64,000 nt of DNA from Candidatus Hydrogenedentota bacterium. Lineage in GTDB: Bacteria > Hydrogenedentota > Hydrogenedentia > Hydrogenedentales > SLHB01. Under the pieces are notes generated by a model that did not search any database, was not told the DNA's origin, and worked only from the letters and a program-made list of their open reading frames with translations. Made by a program: the position numbers and the translations under genes. The DNA is taken from NCBI GenBank assembly GCA_963668025.2, contig CAXXTH010000022.1, forward strand, positions 96,001-160,000, given 5' to 3'. Shown here in pieces: positions 6,560-59,410 of this stretch (within the stretch, counting starts at the first letter, position 1; each line of letters opens with the position of its first letter).

Positions 6560-7693
6560 TCAACCATACCCGCCCACCAACGCACTATACTGATACAAGG
6601 TACAACTTAATTGCGGCTTGGACTCGACCCGGTCTGGGGAAATACATGGGAATTTCGAGCCATAGCGGAAAAACTCGACATGCCCATCCATAAAGAGCGC
6701 ATTGCTGCCGCCTGGGACGTGGTTGAAATACACCACTCCGCTATCCGTATGAAATCCGGTGTCATCCACACCGATATTGTAATCCGTGGCCCAAGCGTCC
6801 CACATAATAGGCAGCATGCTCTGCCCCATGGCGCCGCTGGCCGGATTATTGATATCGGTAATGAAGAATCGCTCGACGCCTTCCCGGGTCCGCTTATAGG
6901 CGGAAGGCAACGGGTTGCCATCATCATCGCCCCAGCCCCAGGCGCTTGCTTTCGCACGACGGTCTTTGCCGGGCAGATGATTCATCACCGCACTTGGCAC
7001 ATCAATTTGCCCCATGTCGTACCATTCGTAAATGCCGTTCCACTCATCCCGGCATCCTACGGCCGATAGATTCGACGTCACGATTGTTTTGATCTGGGTT
7101 GCCGCGCTATAGGAGCCATACGGTTCACGCCAATACTGTGAGCCAAAGCCACTCGCCATCACGGACTCGAGCCACTGCGACCCGGTGGCGGTCGCATAAG
7201 GATTGTATATGTACGAGAAGGGGTGGGATAGGATGGTTAACCGGCATATTTTCGCTGTCTCCGTCAGGCTCGAATTGCCATTGTCGGAAACTTTATCAAC
7301 AATATCCGCTATCGGTTCATCGCCGAGGCCTGGGAAATCGCCACCCCATCGAGCGATACCGCCCCAATCGCCACGAGAGTCCGAAGGACAAAGTGCGATA
7401 CTGGGATCATTCCAGTAGTCCGGATACAACTCACCTGCATTCACTCCCTGTGACCAATACATTCCTGCCGGCTTATAGGCGCTGGAGCCGGGTAGCAGCC
7501 CGCTTTTGTTTTCCGAGGAATACATCTTGCAGATGATGCCCCATTGCTTGAGATTGCTTGCGCAGCTCGCACGGCGTGCGGCCTCCCGCGCACGGGCCAG
7601 CGCGGGCAGCAAAATAGCCGCCAGAATGGCGATAATGGCTATCACCACCAGCAGCTCAATCAGTGTAAAGCCTCTTTTGGAATGACCAATCAT
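6560..7693 (-). CDS. DUF1559 pilin-like protein (prepilin N-terminal cleavage/methylation plus H-X9-DG-type C-terminus)
   Basis: KRG|[39 protein letters not shown]; [16 protein letters not shown]; start moved to ATG7693 behind AGAGGAGGA. Confidence 0.92.
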
Positions 7694-7752
7694 CAATAAT
7701 CCTCCTCTTCTGTTCCTGTTGCCTTTCAAGCAATTGTTCATGATGGCAATAT

Positions 7753-18965: not shown

Positions 18966-20054
18966 TCACCCCACCCCGCCATACAAATGCCCGATGGCGC
19001 TTGGAACAGCGGCTAGATCTACACCCAGCGTGCCACCTCTGCCACAAGGGAACTCATTGTCACTGAACCGCATGTAAGAGACATGCCCGTCCATGTACAA
19101 CACATTCGAGCCGCCGGGGACATGATTGAAGTTCTGAATCGCCTTCGTATGGACGAAAGCATTCCAGTCGGAATTGGCGATGCCACCCCACGCATCGAAC
19201 ATGACGACAATCGTGCTTTGGCCTTTCGCGCCCGCGGCGGGATTGTTGATGTCGGTGATCGAGAAGCGTTCTATCCCTTGGCGGAGGCGGTTAAAACTTG
19301 GTTTTGAAGAGACACTGATGTTTTTACCATTCTCGTCGGTTAATCCGGCGTAATCCCAGCCGGTGGAGCCCGGATATTTCGTACCGCGTGTGAGGTCTTT
19401 TAAATTGAAGTCCGACGAGGTTTCCGCCCATATTGTGTCACAAAGCGATGCGCCGGGCCAGAACCACCCCAGAAGCTCCGGGGTGATGTTGATGTACTGG
19501 TCCAGATAATTCCGGCGCACGGTGCCGAATACGGCCCATTCTCCAAAACTCGTCACCAGGTAGCCTAGATATAAATACGACACGGGCATCGATAGCAGCA
19601 GATCCCGGCACGCTTTATTGGCGACGGATCTGTCTGCGGAATACTCCTTGGCAGCTTTCGTAATCTGCGCCGGGAAATCCTCTTCCACGCCAACATAATC
19701 CATCCCGGCGCGGGAATCGGATGGACACAGCGTGATGCTTACGTCGTTCCAGTAGTCGGGAAATAATTGTGCGCCATCAAGAGACATAGAGAAGTAAGTA
19801 ACCGAATTGTTGGATTCGTCGCATTTGTAGACATTGTTCGCCATGGGGGGGAAATAGGCGCCTTTGGATTCATTGGCGTACATGGTGTGAATAAGGCCCC
19901 ATTGCTTAAGGTTGCTTGCGCAGGAAGCCCTTCGGGCGGCTTCGCGGGCGCGGGCCAGTGCGGGGAGCAGGATGGCGGCCAGAATCGCAATGATAGCGAT
20001 CACTACTAACAATTCAATCAAGGTAAAACCGTAATAATGACTCCTTTTCATCAC
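18966..20054 (-). CDS. DUF1559 pilin-like protein (prepilin N-terminal cleavage/methylation plus H-X9-DG-type C-terminus)
   Basis: G|[35 protein letters not shown]; [16 protein letters not shown]. Confidence 0.92.
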
Positions 20055-50348: not shown

Positions 50349-52004
50349 CTATTTCCTATCCTTCCACCCATAATCCCCGAATCGCTTATCCGGCTCCTGG
50401 TCGCCAAAATGCCAGGCCCTTCCGATCAGGATGTCGTAGTCCTCTTGCTGGGCTACGGGGTCCGCGATGCGGACAACCGTGCGGCCGGTAAGGAATTCGA
50501 TGCTGCGTTCGAAGGGCCAGAAGAGCGTTCCGATGCGCGTGTCCTCCGGCAGCGTCTCGATAGCCTGGGCGAGGTCACGCAAATCACGCGTATCGTCGTG
50601 GGTGTAGATCCAGCGGGCTTGCAGCGCCAGTTCCCATGCGGCGGGTGCGCATGCAAGGCAGGCCAGGATGGCGCAGGCCCAGCGGACCGCCGTGCGCCGA
50701 TCTCGCTGGAAAACTATCCACACCCAATCCCATACCGCACTGCCCACGAATAGACCGCCGAGAGCCAGGCTGTACCACAGGTAGCGGGGAATATTGCCTG
50801 GCGTGAAGAATATCCACCAGAACGCAAGGAAGGGCGAAATAAGGAAGACCGCCGCCGTGGCGGGGTCGTAGCGGAAGGCGAACACGCGCGGCAACTGCCA
50901 GAGCAGGCCTGCGGCCAGCACGGGCAGCAGGAAGGGGTGGTTATGGGCAAGCCACGAAATTGGCTCAAAAGCCGAGCGGAATCCGAAGAGGAGGTATTGC
51001 TGGTATAAGCTGAACAGTCCCGCCGCTTGGCCCGTGGCGGATGTCCCGCTCAGGGCTTGCACGAGCCACCATAGTCCCAACGGAAGGCACGCGCCCGCTA
51101 TCGGGACAAGGACATGCGCGGCGCGGATGCGGCGGAAGGTGAACCGATCATATAGCAGCACGCCAAGCAACGGCCACACGGTGATAATCAAGAACAGTTT
51201 GCAGAGCAGGGCCAGGCTGAACAGAACGCCTGTCCAAAAACCCGCCCAAGATACGTGTGGTTGCGTTAAGGCGCGCCTCCACAGCCGCAGGCTGAGTACG
51301 AGGCACAACAGCGCGGGGATTTCGCCATACACAGCGCGGGCTAGGTAGAGGCTGCCCATCGCGCCGCCCAGAAAGAGCGCCCCTAAAGCGGCTTCTTTGC
51401 GGCCCAGAACAGGCGATAGGAAGCGCCATGCTTGCCAGCATAATACCAAGAACGCGAGCGCTATAAGGACACGCGCGGCCCATAGTCCCGTTCCCGCCAC
51501 CCGAAAGACACCCGCGATGGGCAGCAGCACCGCCGGGCCGACAGAATCATATTCATCAAACAGGCGGAAACCCGATTCCGGGTTTCCTGACGCGTAGACG
51601 CCGTATTCCGCTAGATTGCGCGCCACAAGGAGGTGGTGCATCTCGTCCGGCTCGGGATACGGGTAGTGGGTCAGATGGGGAAACGCCAGCGCCGCCAGAA
51701 AAAGCAACACGACCCACGTGAGCAAGCCAGGCTTGCCCACCCGCGCCAGGGGGTCCTCCCCCACTGCACTGGCCCGTATGCGCAACCCCCAGAGCCCCGC
51801 GCACGCGGCGGCGGCCAGTCCTAAAAAGCATGCGGCTTTCAGCAGCAACACCGTGGACGACGGGGCATCAGCGGTGGATTGTCCTAAAAGCATCAGCCAT
51901 ACGACGAAGGAGCCCACGCCCGAGAATCCCATGCATGCAAACACCAGCGCGCAAAAGGCCCCCGCGAAGAGGCGCATGTACGGCGGCTCGACCTGGCTAT
52001 TCAC
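50349..52004 (-). CDS. GT-C fold membrane glycosyltransferase (ArnT/PMT-like)
   Basis: Many TMs; PDEMHH acidic motif in the first loop, W.AR, YGE.P, LA.L.K. Confidence 0.72.
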   Translation of the reverse strand: MNSQVEPPYMRLFAGAFCALVFACMGFSGVGSFVVWLMLLGQSTADAPSSTVLLLKAACFLGLAAAACAGLWGLRIRASAVGEDPLARVGKPGLLTWVVLLFLAALAFPHLTHYPYPEPDEMHHLLVARNLAEYGVYASGNPESGFRLFDEYDSVGPAVLLPIAGVFRVAGTGLWAARVLIALAFLVLCWQAWRFLSPVLGRKEAALGALFLGGAMGSLYLARAVYGEIPALLCLVLSLRLWRRALTQPHVSWAGFWTGVLFSLALLCKLFLIITVWPLLGVLLYDRFTFRRIRAAHVLVPIAGACLPLGLWWLVQALSGTSATGQAAGLFSLYQQYLLFGFRSAFEPISWLAHNHPFLLPVLAAGLLWQLPRVFAFRYDPATAAVFLISPFLAFWWIFFTPGNIPRYLWYSLALGGLFVGSAVWDWVWIVFQRDRRTAVRWACAILACLACAPAAWELALQARWIYTHDDTRDLRDLAQAIETLPEDTRIGTLFWPFERSIEFLTGRTVVRIADPVAQQEDYDILIGRAWHFGDQEPDKRFGDYGWKDRK

Positions 52005-52368: not shown

Positions 52369-53130
52369 TTACACTTCGATATCGGCCACGGAATCCAATA
52401 TTTGTGTAGGCTGGTACGGGTATTTTGTCACATCCTCCCGCCGCGTGACGCCCGTTAGCACGAGAATCGTTTCCATGCCGGTTTGCACGCCCGCGATGAC
52501 ATCCGTATCCATGCGGTCGCCGACCATCACCGTGTGTTCCGAATGGACGCCGAGGTAATTGAGCCCCGTCCGCATCATCAAGGGATTCGGTTTGCCGATA
52601 AAGAAGGGCATGCGCCCCGTGGCGCTCTCGATTAATGCGGCCAATGCGCCGCAAGCGGGCACAATGCCGCCATCGCCGGGTCCATTGGAATCGGGATTCG
52701 TGGCAATGAACCGTGCGCCGCTGGCCACCAACCGGCATGCCTTGGTCAGCGTTTCGATGTTATATGCCAGCGGCTCGCCGAGTACGACATAATCGGGTTC
52801 ATGGTCTGTAATGATATATCCTGCTTCATGGATGGCCGAGGTCAGCCCGCTTTCACCGATGACAAACGCAGTGCCCCGGTTTTTCTGAGCTCCTAAAAAA
52901 CGGGCTGTCGCCATTGCTGATGTAAAGATATGCTCGGCGGGAATATCGAGTCCGATGATATGCAGCCGATGGGAAAGGTCGCCGGGCGTATAGATGGGGT
53001 TATTGGTCAACACGAGGAACTTCGCCTCATGCTCGCGTAAGCGTGCGATGAACTCGGCCGCACCGGGGATAGCTTCTTGCCCACGGATCAGAACTCCGTC
53101 CATGTCGATCATGTAATTCTTTTGTGCCAT
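52369..53130 (-). CDS. nagD: HAD-IIA family hydrolase (NagD-like)
   Basis: [27 protein letters not shown]. Confidence 0.85.
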
Positions 53131-53213
53131 ATATCTCCCGCCATGTGGTTTCATTTGCCTGTTTGCGCTGGTTCGCCGGGGCAGGGTACCACACCGGCCC
53201 TGGCGGAGACACC

Positions 53214-54704
53214 TTACGGACGTTCAGGAGCCGGGAAAAACTCCGCCCCCGCCAGCGTCGCGGGGAACCGGTCATCCTTGCGCACCAATTCCATGTGCCC
53301 ATCCAGATATAGAACCAGCCGCGTCTGAGCCTGCGGGCCTTCGGGCCCGGTCTTGGTTGAATCGAACAGCAATGGGATTTCGGAAATATACCTGGGGTTT
53401 GCGACGGGATCATTGATATCCGTGATTAAAAAGCGCGCCACGCCTTCGGCCAGCGGAAGTGGGGACGCCCCTCCCGGCAAAGCCGCGCCAGAAGGCTGTT
53501 GTCCTTCATCGATAGCGCGCTGGCGCGCCGCCATGGCAGCCTCCGTGGCGTCACGGACCACCCAGCGTGGGTAGGTGTAGCTGGCGGCGGCGGCGCGGGC
53601 GGCGGTCTCGTAGTCCGGCTCGGGTTTGTCCAGGGCGTCGCGCAAGGTATCCAGCAACGCGTCCGCATCGGGCAACCGGGGATCCACCAATAGCGACAAA
53701 TCCTCTATATAATCCGGATACAGCCCGCGCAGATCGAACATCCAAACGCCGCCAGGCGCGAGGGGTGGATAGTCGCCGCCGTGGTTCTTCGCATACATCT
53801 GCAACGCGATGCCCAACCGCTCCAGATTGTCTAAGGCATCGCCGCGCCGGGCCGCCTCGCGGGAGCGGGCCAGGATGGGCAGCAACACGGCGGCAAGGGC
53901 GAAAATGACGACAATGGCCACCGCCACTTGATAGAAAGGCGCGTGAAGCCAAGGCTGGGCATATTGGCGGTTTTGCTCCTCGGCTGCGACGCGCTGCATG
54001 GCTTGGCCTGTAAGGCCCTCGGGCATGGGCGCGGCAAAAGATGCATCCAAAGCGTGGAGCGCGTTCCGTTCTTCTTCGACGATACGCCGCAAAGCTTCTG
54101 ATTCCGCTAACCGAGTTTCGTATTGCATGCGCGCGCTAGGTTCAAGCATGCCAAGCACATAACGGCGGGCCAATAAGCAGTTGTTCTTCTGGGCTGGCTT
54201 CACATCGGACTCACGCGTCAAAGACTCATAAGCCTTGAGCATTCGACGCTTTACAGCAGTTACAGAAGCGCCGGTGAGCCATGCCGCTTCACCATATTCA
54301 AGGCCCGCGCAACGGATAAGGGCGAAGGCAGCCCGGTATTTGGTTGGGAGCGCCTGCAAAAGGCCTGCGTCATCTGAAGCGGGCTTCATATCTTGCCTTG
54401 TCCACGCATGGCGCGTGGCGCATTGCGCCAATGCCGTGCGGTAGAGCCATGGACGCGCCCGCATGCCTTGCTTGAAGCGCCCCAAGCTTTGGTGGGCCGC
54501 GATGGCGGTTTGCGTGAATACCTGTTCCGCCTCCGCAGGGCTTTCCGATAAGGCGTACAAAAAGGCATATAAGGAAGGCGCGTGCCGCTGCAGGAATGTC
54601 TCAAAAGCGCTTAATTGTCCTTGATGCGCCGCGCCGATAAGGGCTTCATCCGAAAGGCGTGACAAAATGAGCTCATCGCCTTTTTCCGCGTGTATATCAG
54701 TCAT
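53214..54704 (-). CDS. ECF-sigma-like / anti-sigma-like / TM / DUF1559 fusion protein
   Basis: Sigma2-like (SDEALI..AFE..RH...LY, PWLYR.A), sigma4-like (LP.KYR.AF.L...GL.Y.E.A...G.S...VK.R), YVLG.L...R..YE segment, then [39 protein letters not shown] in one frame. Confidence 0.8.
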
Positions 54705-54879
54705 GCCATATACGCTCCAGGAAGGCGCTTCAATGGAAGGCCGGATTATCAATACTATTCAACCTGGCGCCATTATACCGCCGGAAGCGATAGAGATAAA
54801 CTTAATCGCCGCTTTAATGTCCTGCCTATCATGTGGTATGACTTCCCCCAGGTTTCAGCGGTAGAACGGAGGTAACAAT

Positions 54880-56259
54880 ATGCGTATCACATCTTATGGC
54901 GCGGCGGAAAACGTCACAGGAAGCAAACATCTGCTTGAAGTCAATGGGTACCGCATCTTATTCGATTGCGGCATGTTCCAAGGCAAGCGCGAAGAATCCT
55001 CCATGCGGAACAAGGCTTTGCCATTTCCCGTGGACAGCCTCCACGCCGTGGTGTTAAGCCATGCCCACATCGATCATAGCGGCATTCTGCCCGTTCTGGC
55101 GCGTTATGGCTACAAGGGCCGTGTGTTCACCACCCCGGCCACGCGCGATTTGTGCGCCATCATGCTCCTCGATAGTTCGCACATTCAGGAACGTGATGCG
55201 CGCTGGCTCTCGAAAAAGCACCAGACTTTCGTGCCGCCCATCTATACGGATGAAGATGTCCGCGAGATCATGCGCCATTTCATCAGCATACCCTACGACA
55301 TCGTCATGGAGGTTGCGCCTGGCGTCTGCATCACCTTCAAAGACGCTGGCCACGTCCTCGGTTCGGCCATGGTCCTGGTCGAATTTACGGAAAACGGCAA
55401 GCGCCGCACACTGATTTATAGTGGCGACATTGGCCGGAAAAACATGCCTATCTTGAAAGACCCCTGGGAGCCAGATCATGCCGATGTCGTGATAATGGAG
55501 AGCACCTACGGCAACCGGGATCATGATCCCATCGAGACGCTAGACAACGAACTGGCCGATGTCGTGAACCGAACCTATAACCGGGGCGGGAAAATCGTGG
55601 TGCCCACGTTCGCCCTCGAACGCGCCCAAGAGTTCATATTCGCCCTTAAACGGCTCGAAATGCAGAAGCGCATTCCCCTCATGCCGGTCTATGTGGATAG
55701 CCCGCTGACCGTGAACATCACGGAAGTGTTCCGCCTGCACGCGGACCTTTTCGATGAGGAAATTCGCAAAGTTATGGAGGAATCGGGCGATCCCTTCGAG
55801 TTGCACAACATTGACTACATTCGCAACCTAGAACAGTCCATGGAGTTGAATTCACTTACCAAGCCCGCCATCATCCTCTCGGCGTCGGGCATGTGCGAAT
55901 ATGGCCGTATCTTGCACCATCTGCGCCATAACATCGAAGATGAGCGCAACACCATCCTTATCATCGGATTCCAGGCCAGGAACACCCTCGGACGGCGCAT
56001 CGTCGAGCGCGAACGCGAAGTCCGCATTTTCGGCATCAAACACCGGTTGGATGCCGAAGTGAAAGTGCTCAACTCCTTGAGCGCCCATGCGGGCCGTTCC
56101 GAGCTTCTTGACTTCGGCTCCCGATTCAAGAACAGCGCCGAGCGCATCCTGTTGGTGCATGGTGAGCAGGAGGCCCTGGACGCCTTATCTTCCGGACTCG
56201 CCGAAAGAGGCTGCAACAACGTGGCTATCCAAGAAGAAGCCGTAACCGTCGAGTTATAA
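54880..56259 (+). CDS. metallo-beta-lactamase fold beta-CASP ribonuclease
   Basis: VTGS.H, DCG.FQG, HAHIDHSG, AGH.LGS, MESTYG, SASGMC..GR..HH, SAHA. Confidence 0.92.
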   Translation: MRITSYGAAENVTGSKHLLEVNGYRILFDCGMFQGKREESSMRNKALPFPVDSLHAVVLSHAHIDHSGILPVLARYGYKGRVFTTPATRDLCAIMLLDSSHIQERDARWLSKKHQTFVPPIYTDEDVREIMRHFISIPYDIVMEVAPGVCITFKDAGHVLGSAMVLVEFTENGKRRTLIYSGDIGRKNMPILKDPWEPDHADVVIMESTYGNRDHDPIETLDNELADVVNRTYNRGGKIVVPTFALERAQEFIFALKRLEMQKRIPLMPVYVDSPLTVNITEVFRLHADLFDEEIRKVMEESGDPFELHNIDYIRNLEQSMELNSLTKPAIILSASGMCEYGRILHHLRHNIEDERNTILIIGFQARNTLGRRIVEREREVRIFGIKHRLDAEVKVLNSLSAHAGRSELLDFGSRFKNSAERILLVHGEQEALDALSSGLAERGCNNVAIQEEAVTVEL

Positions 56260-57988: not shown

Positions 57989-58522
57989 ATGGACCCGGTG
58001 TTGACAGATGCGGAACTGGTGAAGGCTGTCCTTGCGGGAAAAGGAGCGGCGTACGGAGACCTTATCAGGCGGTACGAACGATCAGTCCGTGCTGCGACTC
58101 TTGCGGTATTGGGCGACTTCCACGCCGCGGAGGACGCCACTCAAGAAACGTTTGTCGTTGCGTACCGGAAGCTCGATGCCCTGCTGCGGCCTTCCGCCTT
58201 CGGCGCTTGGGTATTGCGAATCGCACACCGCCAAGCGTTGCGGGCTGTCCGGAAACACCGGGCAGCCGAAACGCTCGATCCGAATGTGGCTGTTCAGGCG
58301 CCTCATAACGGACGGCTGGATGAGGATTCGGAAGGCCTTCTCACCGCCGTGGCCGCGCTGCCAGAGCACGAACGGCGTGTTGTCATGTTGCATTACTTCG
58401 ATGGGCACAGTGTGGCCGTCATCTCGGCGATGTGTGGCCGGCCTCTTGGTACGGTGACGAAACAACTCGCGCGCGCCCGCGAACGATTGCGGGGCAGGCT
58501 CTGTAAGGAGGCGAAACCATGA
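57989..58522 (+). CDS. ECF RNA polymerase sigma factor
   Basis: AAEDATQETF, FGAWV.RIA, LP.HER.V..L.YF.G.S...IS...G...GTV...L.RAR..L. Confidence 0.92.
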   Translation: MDPVLTDAELVKAVLAGKGAAYGDLIRRYERSVRAATLAVLGDFHAAEDATQETFVVAYRKLDALLRPSAFGAWVLRIAHRQALRAVRKHRAAETLDPNVAVQAPHNGRLDEDSEGLLTAVAALPEHERRVVMLHYFDGHSVAVISAMCGRPLGTVTKQLARARERLRGRLCKEAKP

Positions 58523-59410
58523 CAACCAAAGACACGCTTGAGCAGCGGCTTGCACGCCTTGGACGCACCCTTGCAGACGAGGTTTCCGTCGCCGATACGG
58601 TCATGAAGCGTATAACGGAATGCACCCCCCCTGGCGCGAGGCGTTCGAACCGGCGTCCCATGTGGCTGTTCAAGCCTGCGCTGATCCTGGGTTCGCTTGT
58701 GGCGGCGGCGCTAGTCTACGAGTTCGCGAAGTTTGCCGGTCTCGTGAGTATTACCGGCCGCGCATGGGCTGCGGCGGAGGCCACACCCGACCCACATAAA
58801 ATGATAATTTCGATCGCCGCAGTTTTAGTGCTGGCCGTGTTTTTTTTGGTGATGTTTGTCAACATTCCCACCGCGCTGTGGCGGCGCACGCACACAAGAC
58901 GATACCCATTACTCTGGATTGCTGGTGTCGGCGGCGCTATCGCCTTCCTGATGGGTTCTGTGGCGTGGCAGTGGAACACCGCGCCCTGTCCCGTGGGAAT
59001 CGATGAGACCCTCGAAGTGAGAGGCGGCAACAGCCCGTTGGTTATTCTTGGGATACGGATGGAGCCACCCGCGGGGGATAGCGGCACTATCGAATTGGAT
59101 GTCCGTAACGACGGTCCTACACAGCAATTTTTGGCGTTTGCATACTATGCGAAATGGCGGCACATTCTTGGGAGGGTTCTTCCACCCTGGTGCCAGCGGC
59201 GGCGGAAAGGTCAAGCGCGTGCCTCCCCATTGGTCAGGCACTATCGAGTTTGACCTTCGCTTTCCCCCACGGTTTGGATACAGCGGCAGGATAGAGATCC
59301 AGATAGGCGGCGCTGTGGTGTCACAAGAACAGGATTTTATAGTGGGGTTGCCGCCTGAGTTTGAAATCTTGTACAAGAAGCGGTTTGTTCTAGTTCCAGA
59401 AGGCGGATGA
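58519..59410 (+). pseudogene. putative anti-sigma membrane protein with an apparent +1 frameshift near 59152
   Basis: ATGA overlap with the sigma gene; 3 TMs; removing one A from GCGAAAT joins the 58519 frame to the frame ending at TAA59410. Confidence 0.55.

Follow-up and report, generated by a model that had tools for sequence, protein, structure and literature searches.

A single gene on the minus strand of a 64,000-nt stretch of a Candidatus Hydrogenedentota genome is described here; the whole stretch is called the window, gene coordinates are counted in it, and the genome to which it belongs (completeness 93.75%) is referred to as G000. The gene product, P0001, is a protein of 496 aa that carries, in one frame, degenerate regions 2 and 4 of an extracytoplasmic function (ECF) sigma factor, an anti-sigma domain (ASD) without zinc ligands, a transmembrane (TM) helix and a pilin-like domain of the DUF1559 type. 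This layout had been proposed by a first-pass annotation of the DNA, and every detail of it was confirmed by Pfam and NCBIfam scans, alignments and AlphaFold2 (AF2) models. Comparison with related genomes places the origin of the gene in a split two-gene module, consisting of an ECF sigma factor and a stand-alone anti-sigma-DUF1559 protein, and the sigma moiety of the fused protein is clearly degenerate. As for its present role, a membrane-tethered, self-clamped sigma mimic is tentatively favoured over a working sigma factor that is released by proteolysis.

The locus and the fused gene

The coordinates of the gene and its parts are collected in Table 1. From a TTG start the open frame would extend to 54752 (53214..54752, 512 aa); a GGAG sequence is located 11-14 nt 5' of the ATG at 54704, which is the likely start of the fused gene.

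Table 1. Features of the fused gene and of the region just upstream, with window positions and P0001 residue numbers.
Feature	Residues	Position	Strand	Basis
Whole coding sequence of the sigma-like/anti-sigma/TM/DUF1559-like protein P0001	1-496	53214..54704	(-)	496 codons and stop; X1 and X2 contigs
Sigma region 2-like domain	19-102	54399..54650	(-)	Pfam Sigma70_r2; AF2 helices; Foldseek ECF sigmas
Sigma2-sigma4 linker	103-113	54366..54398	(-)	Alignment; pLDDT <50 at residues 110-112
Sigma region 4-like domain	114-166	54207..54365	(-)	Pfam Sigma70_r4_2; AF2 helices
GTGA	Val168	54200..54203	(-)	Where stand-alone anti-sigma genes begin and overlap the sigma stop; also start of gene call P0002
Class-I anti-sigma domain without zinc ligands	170-250	53955..54197	(-)	NF052375; AF2 helices; RslA alignment
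Transmembrane helix	257-279	53868..53936	(-)	Homologous to the N-terminal helix of prepilin-type DUF1559 proteins
Periplasmic DUF1559-type pilin-like domain (predicted location)	280-496	53217..53867	(-)	Pfam; BLASTP; AF2 pLDDT 89.6
TGAAGC-N12-CGTAT		54710..54732	(-)	Immediately 5' of the ATG; at most a degraded trace of the module promoter

The fused gene is genuine, and the join between its two parts results neither from misassembly nor from a recently lost stop codon. The junction, which had been singled out for a check against the reads, is crossed with 0 differences by Logan contigs of run X1 (2043 nt, covering 53395-54900) and run X2 (2956 nt, covering 53650-54900), both from one sample that is possibly the source sample of the window assembly. 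A sequencing or assembly artefact, in which a miscounted base merged two neighbouring genes, is a very improbable explanation. It could be argued from the gene call P0002, which begins at an internal GTG, and from a 2677-nt contig of run X3, on which P0002 sits and which departs from the window sequence at 54211, positions 54212-54224 being uncovered by any listed X3 contig, a gap that carries no weight when taken alone. However, this contig, which corresponds to window positions 53360-54211, runs on into the middle of an unrelated gene located on a different contig of G000, the open reading frame (ORF) of a 571-aa membrane protein (G000:C23:384535-384564; L055). No repeat common to both sides of the joint (54211 / C23) was found, and we read the contig as chimeric or as derived from a rearranged strain rather than as evidence of a separate sigma gene. 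Moreover, the sigma part, with 31% identity to free sigma factors, is too diverged for the join to be explained by a base-count error, and one-ORF homologues of other genomes align continuously across the sigma/anti-sigma junction, which also argues against an assembly error.

The GTGA at Val168 may be a relic of the old gene boundary, although it is a weak point when taken alone. A model in which a 2-nt deletion at the old stop created the junction did not hold, as the sigma tails could not be aligned in register. A metagenome variant about 93% identical to the window over 53350-54004 shows 29 listed differences, of which 19 fall at third codon positions (17 of them synonymous), and one in-frame 3-nt gap.

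Domains of the fused protein

The two halves of P0001 were folded separately (alignments A5 and A6), the models covering residues 1-167 and 168-496. For the N-terminal third, in which a sigma fold had been expected by the first-pass annotation, such a fold was indeed predicted: the AF2 model of residues 1-167 (27 alignment rows) has a predicted local distance difference test value (pLDDT) of 87.2 and a predicted template modelling score (pTM) of 0.77, and comprises a helical sigma2 plus sigma4 fold with sigma2 helices at residues 19-27, 31-53, 56-72 and 83-102 and sigma4 helices at residues 114-117, 121-132, 137-144 and 148-166. Foldseek yielded 26 PDB matches to this model at E <= 0.001, those listed being ECF sigma chains. 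The top matches are ECF sigmas in their anti-sigma-bound form, with CnrH (4cxf_A, E 1.8e-06, TMq 0.75) and SigW (5wuq, TMq 0.74-0.76) among them, and structures of PhyR (4qic_A, 2lfw, 9by5_C, 4g97 and 3n0r) are found further down the list. No receiver domain was detected in P0001 in the Pfam or NCBIfam scans. In the NCBIfam scan, TIGR02937 (sigma70-ECF) was matched with 33.5 bits, below its cut-off of 42.9, and the NF052375 and DUF1559 scores given below also fall short of their cut-offs, so that 'degenerate' is a fair word for the protein.

The extent of the degeneration was assessed against 31 free sigma factors, using the 51 positions that are at least 90% conserved among them. Each free sigma retains at least 46 of the 51 residues, as against 25 in the window protein and 13-21 in seven other fused proteins. 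The signature motifs considered here, including those specific to the fused forms, were picked after viewing the alignment. The region 2.2 signature Q[ED][TAS][FLM] is present in 30 of the 31 free sigmas, the region 2.3/2.4 signature A[TAS]N..[RKCHN]D in all 31 and the region 4.2 signature GTVKSR in 30, with none of the three occurring in any of the eight fused proteins; the last reads TAVKRR in the window. ECF sigmas have to pass the linker between sigma2 and sigma4 through the polymerase; in the window this linker measures 11 residues and falls short of that of the free sigmas by about 37 alignment columns. In overall identity the sigma part of the window stands at 31.1% (maximum 34.2%) to the free sigmas, which are mutually 51.6% identical (median; minimum 38.4%), and its end branch in the sigma tree is 3.91 long against a median of 0.27. 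The anti-sigma part, at 33.4% against 38.3% among the split forms, lies within their range (26.8-85.7%). A homology search with residues 1-175 against proteins of 272-868 aa gave no match at E <= 0.001.

In the following domain, NF052375 ('antisigma') was matched below its cut-off in the NCBIfam scan, over residues 178-276 with 39.4 bits against 100; the Pfam scan gave no match to zf-HC2 (PF13490) in P0001. The window reads [10 protein letters not shown] at the site of the HLxxCxxCR of its relatives, and thus lacks the HxxxCxxC zinc ligands, which are present in 14 of the 34 anti-sigma-type rows of the alignment. The AF2 model of residues 168-496 (38 rows, pLDDT 89.6) comprises a four-helix N-terminal domain, a helix of 53 residues and an alpha/beta domain. 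The four helices (3-17, 22-34, 36-55 and 64-82, numbered within residues 168-496) lie N-terminal to the single membrane helix, and their structural alignment by VIA-align matches known anti-sigma domains with middling Z values: RslA (Z 6.6, root-mean-square deviation (rmsd) 3.6, 61 residues aligned), MucA (5.8), RsiW (5.7), RskA (5.6) and also RseA.

A complex of residues 1-167 with residues 168-255 was predicted with a score of 0.78, the best of three controls reaching 0.01. Of 80 solved complexes 58 attain the mark applied to this score, as do 2 of 110 mismatched pairs, counts that serve only as a rough benchmark here because user-built alignments were supplied; moreover, sigma/anti-sigma pairs are textbook cases, and the high score may stem from resemblance to structures already solved. 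The runs agree on at least 91% of the contacts and the partner pLDDT is at least 83. The predicted contacts fall on the sigma2 helices (residues 31-72) and on sigma4 (residues 116-163), resembling those of inhibitory complexes, and the model thus suggests that the sigma-like part is clamped in cis by its own anti-sigma domain.

The C-terminal part had been described in the first-pass annotation as a full DUF1559-type domain. Its homology is clear, in spite of a sub-cut-off Pfam score, from a profile search and from BLASTP to the two canonical DUF1559 copies of the window at 6560..7741 and 18966..20054 (E 5e-10 and 2e-08), and the motifs said to be shared with these copies were recovered in the window protein ([39 protein letters not shown]). 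They include the LLPxLxRxREAARR segment and the C-terminal RFxITDINxP...LxxDGH core of prepilin-type DUF1559 proteins. The domain is a short form without the large central insert of the canonical copies, and SBP_bac_10/DUF1559 (PF07596) is matched over residues 282-314 only, with 18.7 bits against a cut-off of 23.3. Counted back from the conserved Pro of the pilin helix, the prepilin site G|FTLIE is replaced by H|APFYQ, with Gly-1 and Glu5 lost, and in the H-X9-DG motif (TIGR04294-type) the DG is retained (LYLDGH) while Pro stands at the His column; alignment thus bore out each of these earlier observations. The losses are real, and yet none is special to this gene. The prepilin motif is found in 4 of 4 canonical rows and in 0 of 34 anti-sigma-type rows, the absence of Gly-1 and Glu5 being a trait of the whole stand-alone anti-sigma-DUF1559 family, and many stand-alone members likewise lack the zinc ligands and the His (His in 6 of the 34 rows).

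The membrane helix, which is part of the single 53-residue helix of the AF2 model and leads into the alpha/beta domain, retains the helix-breaking Pro of pilins. Structural matches of the C-terminal model to pilins and pseudopilins are weak: ComP (Z 4.8), PilA4 (Z 4.8), EpsG (Z 4.7, rmsd 2.9, 95 residues aligned, 22% identity) and a type IVb pilin (Z 4.3). Foldseek gave no match to this model at E <= 0.001, and a protein atlas search retrieved only unnamed or DUF1559 clusters (score 0.93). About 256 residues precede the membrane helix, and homology with prepilins suggests a single-pass topology in which the sigma-like and anti-sigma parts are cytoplasmic and the DUF1559 domain periplasmic.

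When P0001 was used as a query against G000, 100 matches were reported, nearly all over the DUF1559-like C-terminal part, which indicates a strong expansion of the DUF1559 family in this genome. Four short G000 forms with open frames of 249-310 aa match the entire ectodomain (C3:125535, C12:107492, C12:110117 and C12:111151). In the profile search of protein representatives described below, the very long proteins P0030 (1239 aa), P0034 (1462 aa), P0077 and P0070 were seen to contain 5-7 separate DUF1559-like stretches each, that is, tandem arrays in one chain. G000 also encodes a Peptidase_M50 of the RseP type (125 and 90 bits in one 593-aa frame) and a prepilin peptidase.

Origin from a two-gene module and the fused family

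Residues 168-496 have their closest homologues in stand-alone proteins (318-351 aa, 35-39% identity) that combine a zf-HC2 with a DUF1559 domain. At E <= 1e-20 an anti-sigma-DUF1559 gene is present in 20 of 41 related genomes (G000 included), and at 29 distinct loci of Candidatus Hydrogenedentota relatives a gene for a canonical ECF sigma of about 200 aa lies directly upstream of it. At 24 of these split loci the end of the sigma gene shares 4 nt (ATGA or GTGA) with the beginning of the anti-sigma gene, and at 2 it shares 1 nt; the remaining loci have a gap of 2 nt (2 loci) or 166 nt (1 locus). The best matches of residues 1-262 in the order's 133 genomes are sigmas encoded upstream of anti-sigma-DUF1559 genes (33-37% identity, E 1e-12 to 4e-14), and when four further ECF sigmas from G000 serve as the outgroup of a tree, the window's sigma part nests within the clade of module sigmas with a support of 84. 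By these sequence relationships, the window gene descends from the split module of an ECF sigma and an anti-sigma-DUF1559 protein. It had been reasoned in the first-pass annotation that a sigma part encoded separately in homologues, joined here by artefact or recent stop loss, would undo the proposed fusion; the homologues do encode it separately, at the 29 loci, whereas the join is neither artefactual nor recent, and the related genomes contain split pairs as well as fused forms, the latter in genus g39 and in a few further metagenome-assembled genomes.

In 25 of the 29 split loci (loci among L012-L054) the sigma gene carries a TGAACC-N15/16-CGTA motif at its 5' end, which is probably the autoregulatory ECF promoter of the module. 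Many sigma starts have probably been called too far upstream, since the N-terminal Thr/Ala-Tyr of the naive ORFs is the -10 element CGTAT translated. The sequences preceding the window gene and the G039 fused gene contain no such motif, even in relaxed form, and a search of the whole of G000 gave 10 matches as compared with 5-27 in eight scrambled controls, that is, no enrichment. The TGAAGC-N12-CGTAT sequence upstream of the window gene was considered as a promoter relic and rejected, being too weak to count and possibly due to chance. The best free sigma of G000 is 43% identical to a module sigma.

A tandem second DUF1559-type gene follows the anti-sigma-DUF1559 gene at L023 (G039:C1:2696500-2703500), L077 and L081, and at L023 this second copy carries a zinc-finger anti-sigma domain of its own. 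In at least two relatives the pair is followed by a conserved gene for a large secreted or membrane protein without a Pfam domain (L013:2509-3942 and L015:2458-3900). The G000 homologue of this protein (37% identity, 801 aa, C10:1136885-1138216; L057:1965-4370, minus strand) has no sigma/anti-sigma pair upstream, where about 940 nt are without a long ORF.

A two-row profile of the fused form was searched against 1.84 billion representatives, and the best 150 matches include four full-length one-ORF forms (P0015, P0017, P0047 and P0053), fragments and, by a rough count, about 70 stand-alone anti-sigma-DUF1559 proteins. P0047 (527 aa) and P0053 (474 aa) carry a canonical sigma, with Sigma70_r2 scores of 69 and 52 bits and Sigma70_r4_2 scores of 40 and 58 bits, respectively, and may be recent independent joins or the result of frameshift or sequencing errors; in P0053 the sigma tail appears to be frame-shifted into the anti-sigma start. 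Apart from these two, the one-ORF forms carry a degenerate sigma. When the order was searched with a fused profile of four rows, only G000 and genus g39, which belongs to another family, gave full-length matches. All 9 genomes of g39 have the fused form (7 full-length, 2 cut by contig ends), and fused and split forms coexist in this genus. In the 53 other genomes of the family to which G000 belongs, no match starts before profile position 181, and all are thus confined to the anti-sigma part. L080, L084, L087 and L089 likewise contain single ORFs of the fused kind. The fused gene at L063 (G093:C297:451-2031) has one in-frame TGA and could be a pseudogene, an error or a case of a recoded codon. 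Open frames of 509-530 aa in G023 and G003 were rejected as fusions, being out-of-frame read-through in GC-rich DNA with the sigma in another frame, and L077, L081, L083 and L085 were shown to be split pairs.

Four of the seven full-length g39 genes, one from each of four species, were used to examine selection. Identities are 64% for sigma2, 59% for sigma4, 69% for the ASD, 80% for the DUF1559 domain and 86% (median) for the TM helix, and the dN/dS ratios, which are rough because the proportion of synonymous differences (pS) is near 0.5, are 0.21 for sigma2, 0.32 for the linker, 0.24 for sigma4, 0.20 for the ASD, 0.06 for the membrane helix and 0.13 for the DUF1559 domain. The sigma-like part is thus under purifying selection in g39 (dN/dS about 0.2). 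The order of conservation is inverted relative to the split module, in that the fused forms vary most in the sigma-like part and least in the pilin helix and the ectodomain, and the high conservation of the pilin-type helix (L058-L065) hints at specific intramembrane contacts.

Whether the fusion arose once or twice was considered with trees. In the anti-sigma/DUF1559 trees, from which matches below 100 bits and duplicate places were excluded, the window falls inside its own family, f1, whereas the seven other fused proteins form a separate clade with 100% support; in the sigma tree the window and G039 fused sigma parts, the two that this tree contained, group together (SH-aLRT 90), both on very long branches. 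With p values of 0.06 and 0.096, approximately unbiased (AU) tests did not reject monophyly of the fused forms. Two motifs set the fused forms apart from the split ones: F[YM]QV[AT]V at the start of the membrane helix, found in 7 of 8 fused proteins including that of the window, and [DE]NL..[LVI]G.A[LF], found in all 8; neither occurs in any of the 29 split proteins. We lean towards a single, ancient fusion rather than two. Under another explanation, the lineage of G000 acquired its fusion separately from the other fused clade, by a small indel at the gene overlap, and the sigma part now drifts towards loss while only the anti-sigma-DUF1559 part, or nothing, is still useful. Such a course of events would fit the position of the window's anti-sigma part in f1 in both trees, the GTGA at the exact place of the split-gene overlap, the one-ORF forms with a canonical sigma, which imply that such joins arise repeatedly, and the lack of a split module in G000 (see below). 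It is nevertheless unlikely, as the frame is open across all 496 codons and both halves fold with high confidence, an end branch of 3.9 should have brought stops or indels if the sigma domain were unconstrained, the two shared motifs and the AU tests are in line with one fused clade, and the differences of the ectodomain from its 93% identical variant are mostly at third positions.

The genes surrounding the fused gene in the window encode a divergently oriented beta-CASP/MBL RNA-metabolising hydrolase (54880-56259, plus strand), an HAD-type hydrolase (52369-53154, minus strand) and a PMT_2-type glycosyltransferase-like membrane protein (50349-52004, minus strand), and no synteny was found between the window fused gene and that of G039. 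An ordinary ECF sigma of 177 aa is encoded 3.3 kb away (57989-58522, plus strand), followed with a 4-nt overlap by a gene (58519-59253, plus strand) for a 244-aa membrane protein, presumably its anti-sigma factor.

Function and comparison with known systems

The first-pass annotation knew of no description of the architecture, a statement that does not hold for the hybrid as such. One-polypeptide sigma/anti-sigma hybrids are represented by IutY of Pseudomonas putida (ECF243), which is released by Prc and RseP (PMC8999054), and by ECF48, ECF52, ECF53 and some ECF36 members, which are predicted hybrids with predicted proteolytic release (PMC8999054; PMC7826278). Like the window protein, IutY is a single chain that starts with an ECF sigma and continues with an anti-sigma part, a single membrane span and a sensor in the periplasm, and it inhibits itself until processed (PMC8999054). 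It differs in its FecR-type anti-sigma part, its TonB-dependent receptor partner and a sigma that is active after release, whereas the window protein has a pilin-like DUF1559 sensor and has lost the conserved sigma motifs of its family. The actinobacterial ECF48, ECF52 (SCO4117) and ECF53 proteins share with it a C-terminal anti-sigma-like domain, a membrane helix and an extracytoplasmic domain (PMC8999054), but they have zinc-finger anti-sigma-like domains, one or two membrane helices, normal sigma cores, ECF groups of their own and proline-rich or carbohydrate-binding ectodomains; the window protein comes from another phylum, with a degenerate sigma core and no zinc ligands. Within the literature searched, the new parts are the pilin-like DUF1559 sensor and the degenerate sigma. 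No publication linking DUF1559 or prepilin-type domains to anti-sigma factors and no description of the split sigma/anti-sigma-DUF1559 module was found in these searches; the main text of PMC7826278 does not mention 'prepilin', 'SBP_bac' or 'pilin', and its supplements may list such a group.

The split Hydrogenedentota module, the direct evolutionary source, has the same ASD, pilin-derived helix and short DUF1559 domain (33-38% identity) but consists of two genes, with a highly conserved sigma and a promoter. Sigma mimicry is known from PhyR of the alphaproteobacterial general stress response, a soluble, receiver-fused protein that, once phosphorylated, binds NepR in trans. PhyR and the window protein would have in common a degenerate ECF-sigma fold that is retained only for binding an anti-sigma factor, the binding in the latter being predicted from the complex model; unlike PhyR, the window protein has its putative mimic fused to the anti-sigma domain itself, is membrane-tethered and lacks a receiver domain. 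From prepilin-type DUF1559/SBP_bac_10 proteins it differs by the absence of the G|FTLIE site, of the H-X9-DG His and of the large insert, and by its cytoplasmic N-terminal part. These proteins form a hugely expanded prepilin-type family of unknown function in Planctomycetes (PMC8567305).

The function suggested in the first-pass annotation, either a tethered sigma that is held and released or a pseudo-sigma, is supported in part, and its two alternatives remain the leading readings. Between them, the pseudo-sigma is considered the more likely, and the reading tentatively favoured is that of a membrane-tethered, self-clamped sigma-like/anti-sigma hybrid whose sigma moiety is a pseudo-sigma or sigma mimic. 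P0001 would be a single-pass inner-membrane protein whose ECF-sigma-like domain is held in the cytoplasm by the covalently joined class-I anti-sigma domain. Its anchor would be the N-terminal helix of a pilin-like DUF1559 protein in a form that prepilin peptidase can no longer cleave, with the globular DUF1559 domain in the periplasm. Selection would keep a folded, sigma-shaped plug as a built-in ligand for the anti-sigma domain, and the pilin-type membrane helix and the ectodomain, as the most constrained parts, would presumably be the working ones. The sigma moiety is most likely no longer the sigma of the module, since it has shed the signatures for core binding and for -10 and -35 recognition as well as the long linker, and the gene has shed the family promoter; sequence features thus point to a loss of sigma activity.

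Several findings weigh against such a loss. Both Pfam sigma models are matched above their cut-offs, Sigma70_r2 over residues 38-96 with 29.4 bits (cut-off 24) and Sigma70_r4_2 over residues 115-161 with 34.9 bits (cut-off 25.7), as compared with 68.6 and 48 bits, respectively, in free module sigmas, and region 4.2 of the window retains the basic helix VKRRMLKAY. The sole hybrid studied experimentally, IutY, is a functional sigma (PMC8999054). No split sigma/anti-sigma-DUF1559 module was found in G000 (93.75% complete), where the sole match is the fused gene itself, and a decoy would thus have no target there. Finally, selection was measured in g39 and not in the lineage of the window, which has no close relative in the collections, and a dN/dS of about 0.2 is just as well compatible with a working sigma of new specificity.

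The main rival explanation is a working one-component transmembrane sigma of the IutY or ECF48/52/53 kind, in which a signal at the ectodomain or helix would trigger site-1 and site-2 proteolysis, the sigma-ASD fragment would be freed and its ASD degraded, and the sigma, with a changed promoter specificity, would bind RNA polymerase. This is a real, though lesser, possibility. The domain order is that of the known hybrids, the sigma fold is predicted and its Pfam scores pass, the ASD is modelled over the sigma2 and sigma4 surfaces as in solved inhibitory complexes, G000 encodes the RseP-type protease, the membrane helix retains its helix-breaking Pro, and the g39 sigma-like part is under purifying selection. 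On the other hand, the signatures of regions 2.2, 2.3/2.4 and 4.2 are gone in all eight fused proteins, and these regions vary among them in a manner not expected of sigmas that recognise a common promoter; the linker is only 11 residues long; the family promoter is absent from the gene and shows no enrichment in G000; and conservation is lower in the sigma-like part than in the ectodomain, contrary to what is seen in the split module.

A further reading, rather improbable at present, treats the fused proteins as membrane partner-switching devices, in which the helix and ectodomain would read the pool or the assembly state of DUF1559 pilin-like proteins and open or close the in-cis clamp without proteolysis. 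Acting in trans, the freed anti-sigma domain would then capture a free ECF sigma, or the mimic would strip the sigma off a stand-alone anti-sigma-DUF1559 protein. Regulators that read pilins in the inner membrane are known in the PilS-PilA pair of P. aeruginosa and the PilA-PleC pair of Caulobacter (PMC6058289 and PMC7196804). PilS and PleC are histidine kinases that bind pilins, whereas the window sensor would, by analogy, itself be pilin-like and joined to an anti-sigma domain. Pilin-pool sensing on this analogy is a possible model for the pilin helix being the most strongly conserved part (dN/dS 0.06).

Pairs of ECF sigma and anti-sigma factors constitute the third large class of bacterial transmembrane signalling, and their sensor domains determine what the cell perceives. 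The present analysis indicates that an uncultivated phylum uses a pilin-like DUF1559 domain, together with the pilin membrane helix, as an anti-sigma sensor, and the predicted promoter of the split module, TGAACC-N15/16-CGTA, makes its regulon directly searchable. The fused variants represent a natural experiment, in which the sigma part sheds its polymerase- and promoter-binding signatures and is still under selection (g39). If the mimic is true, sigma mimicry would have arisen a second time, independently of PhyR; if the protein is still a sigma, it marks how far the ECF core can drift; and if partner-switching is true, PhyR-like logic would have been invented independently, joined to an anti-sigma factor and coupled to a pilin-like sensor. 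The anti-sigma-DUF1559 proteins offer a first functional handle on the enormous and unexplained DUF1559 family.

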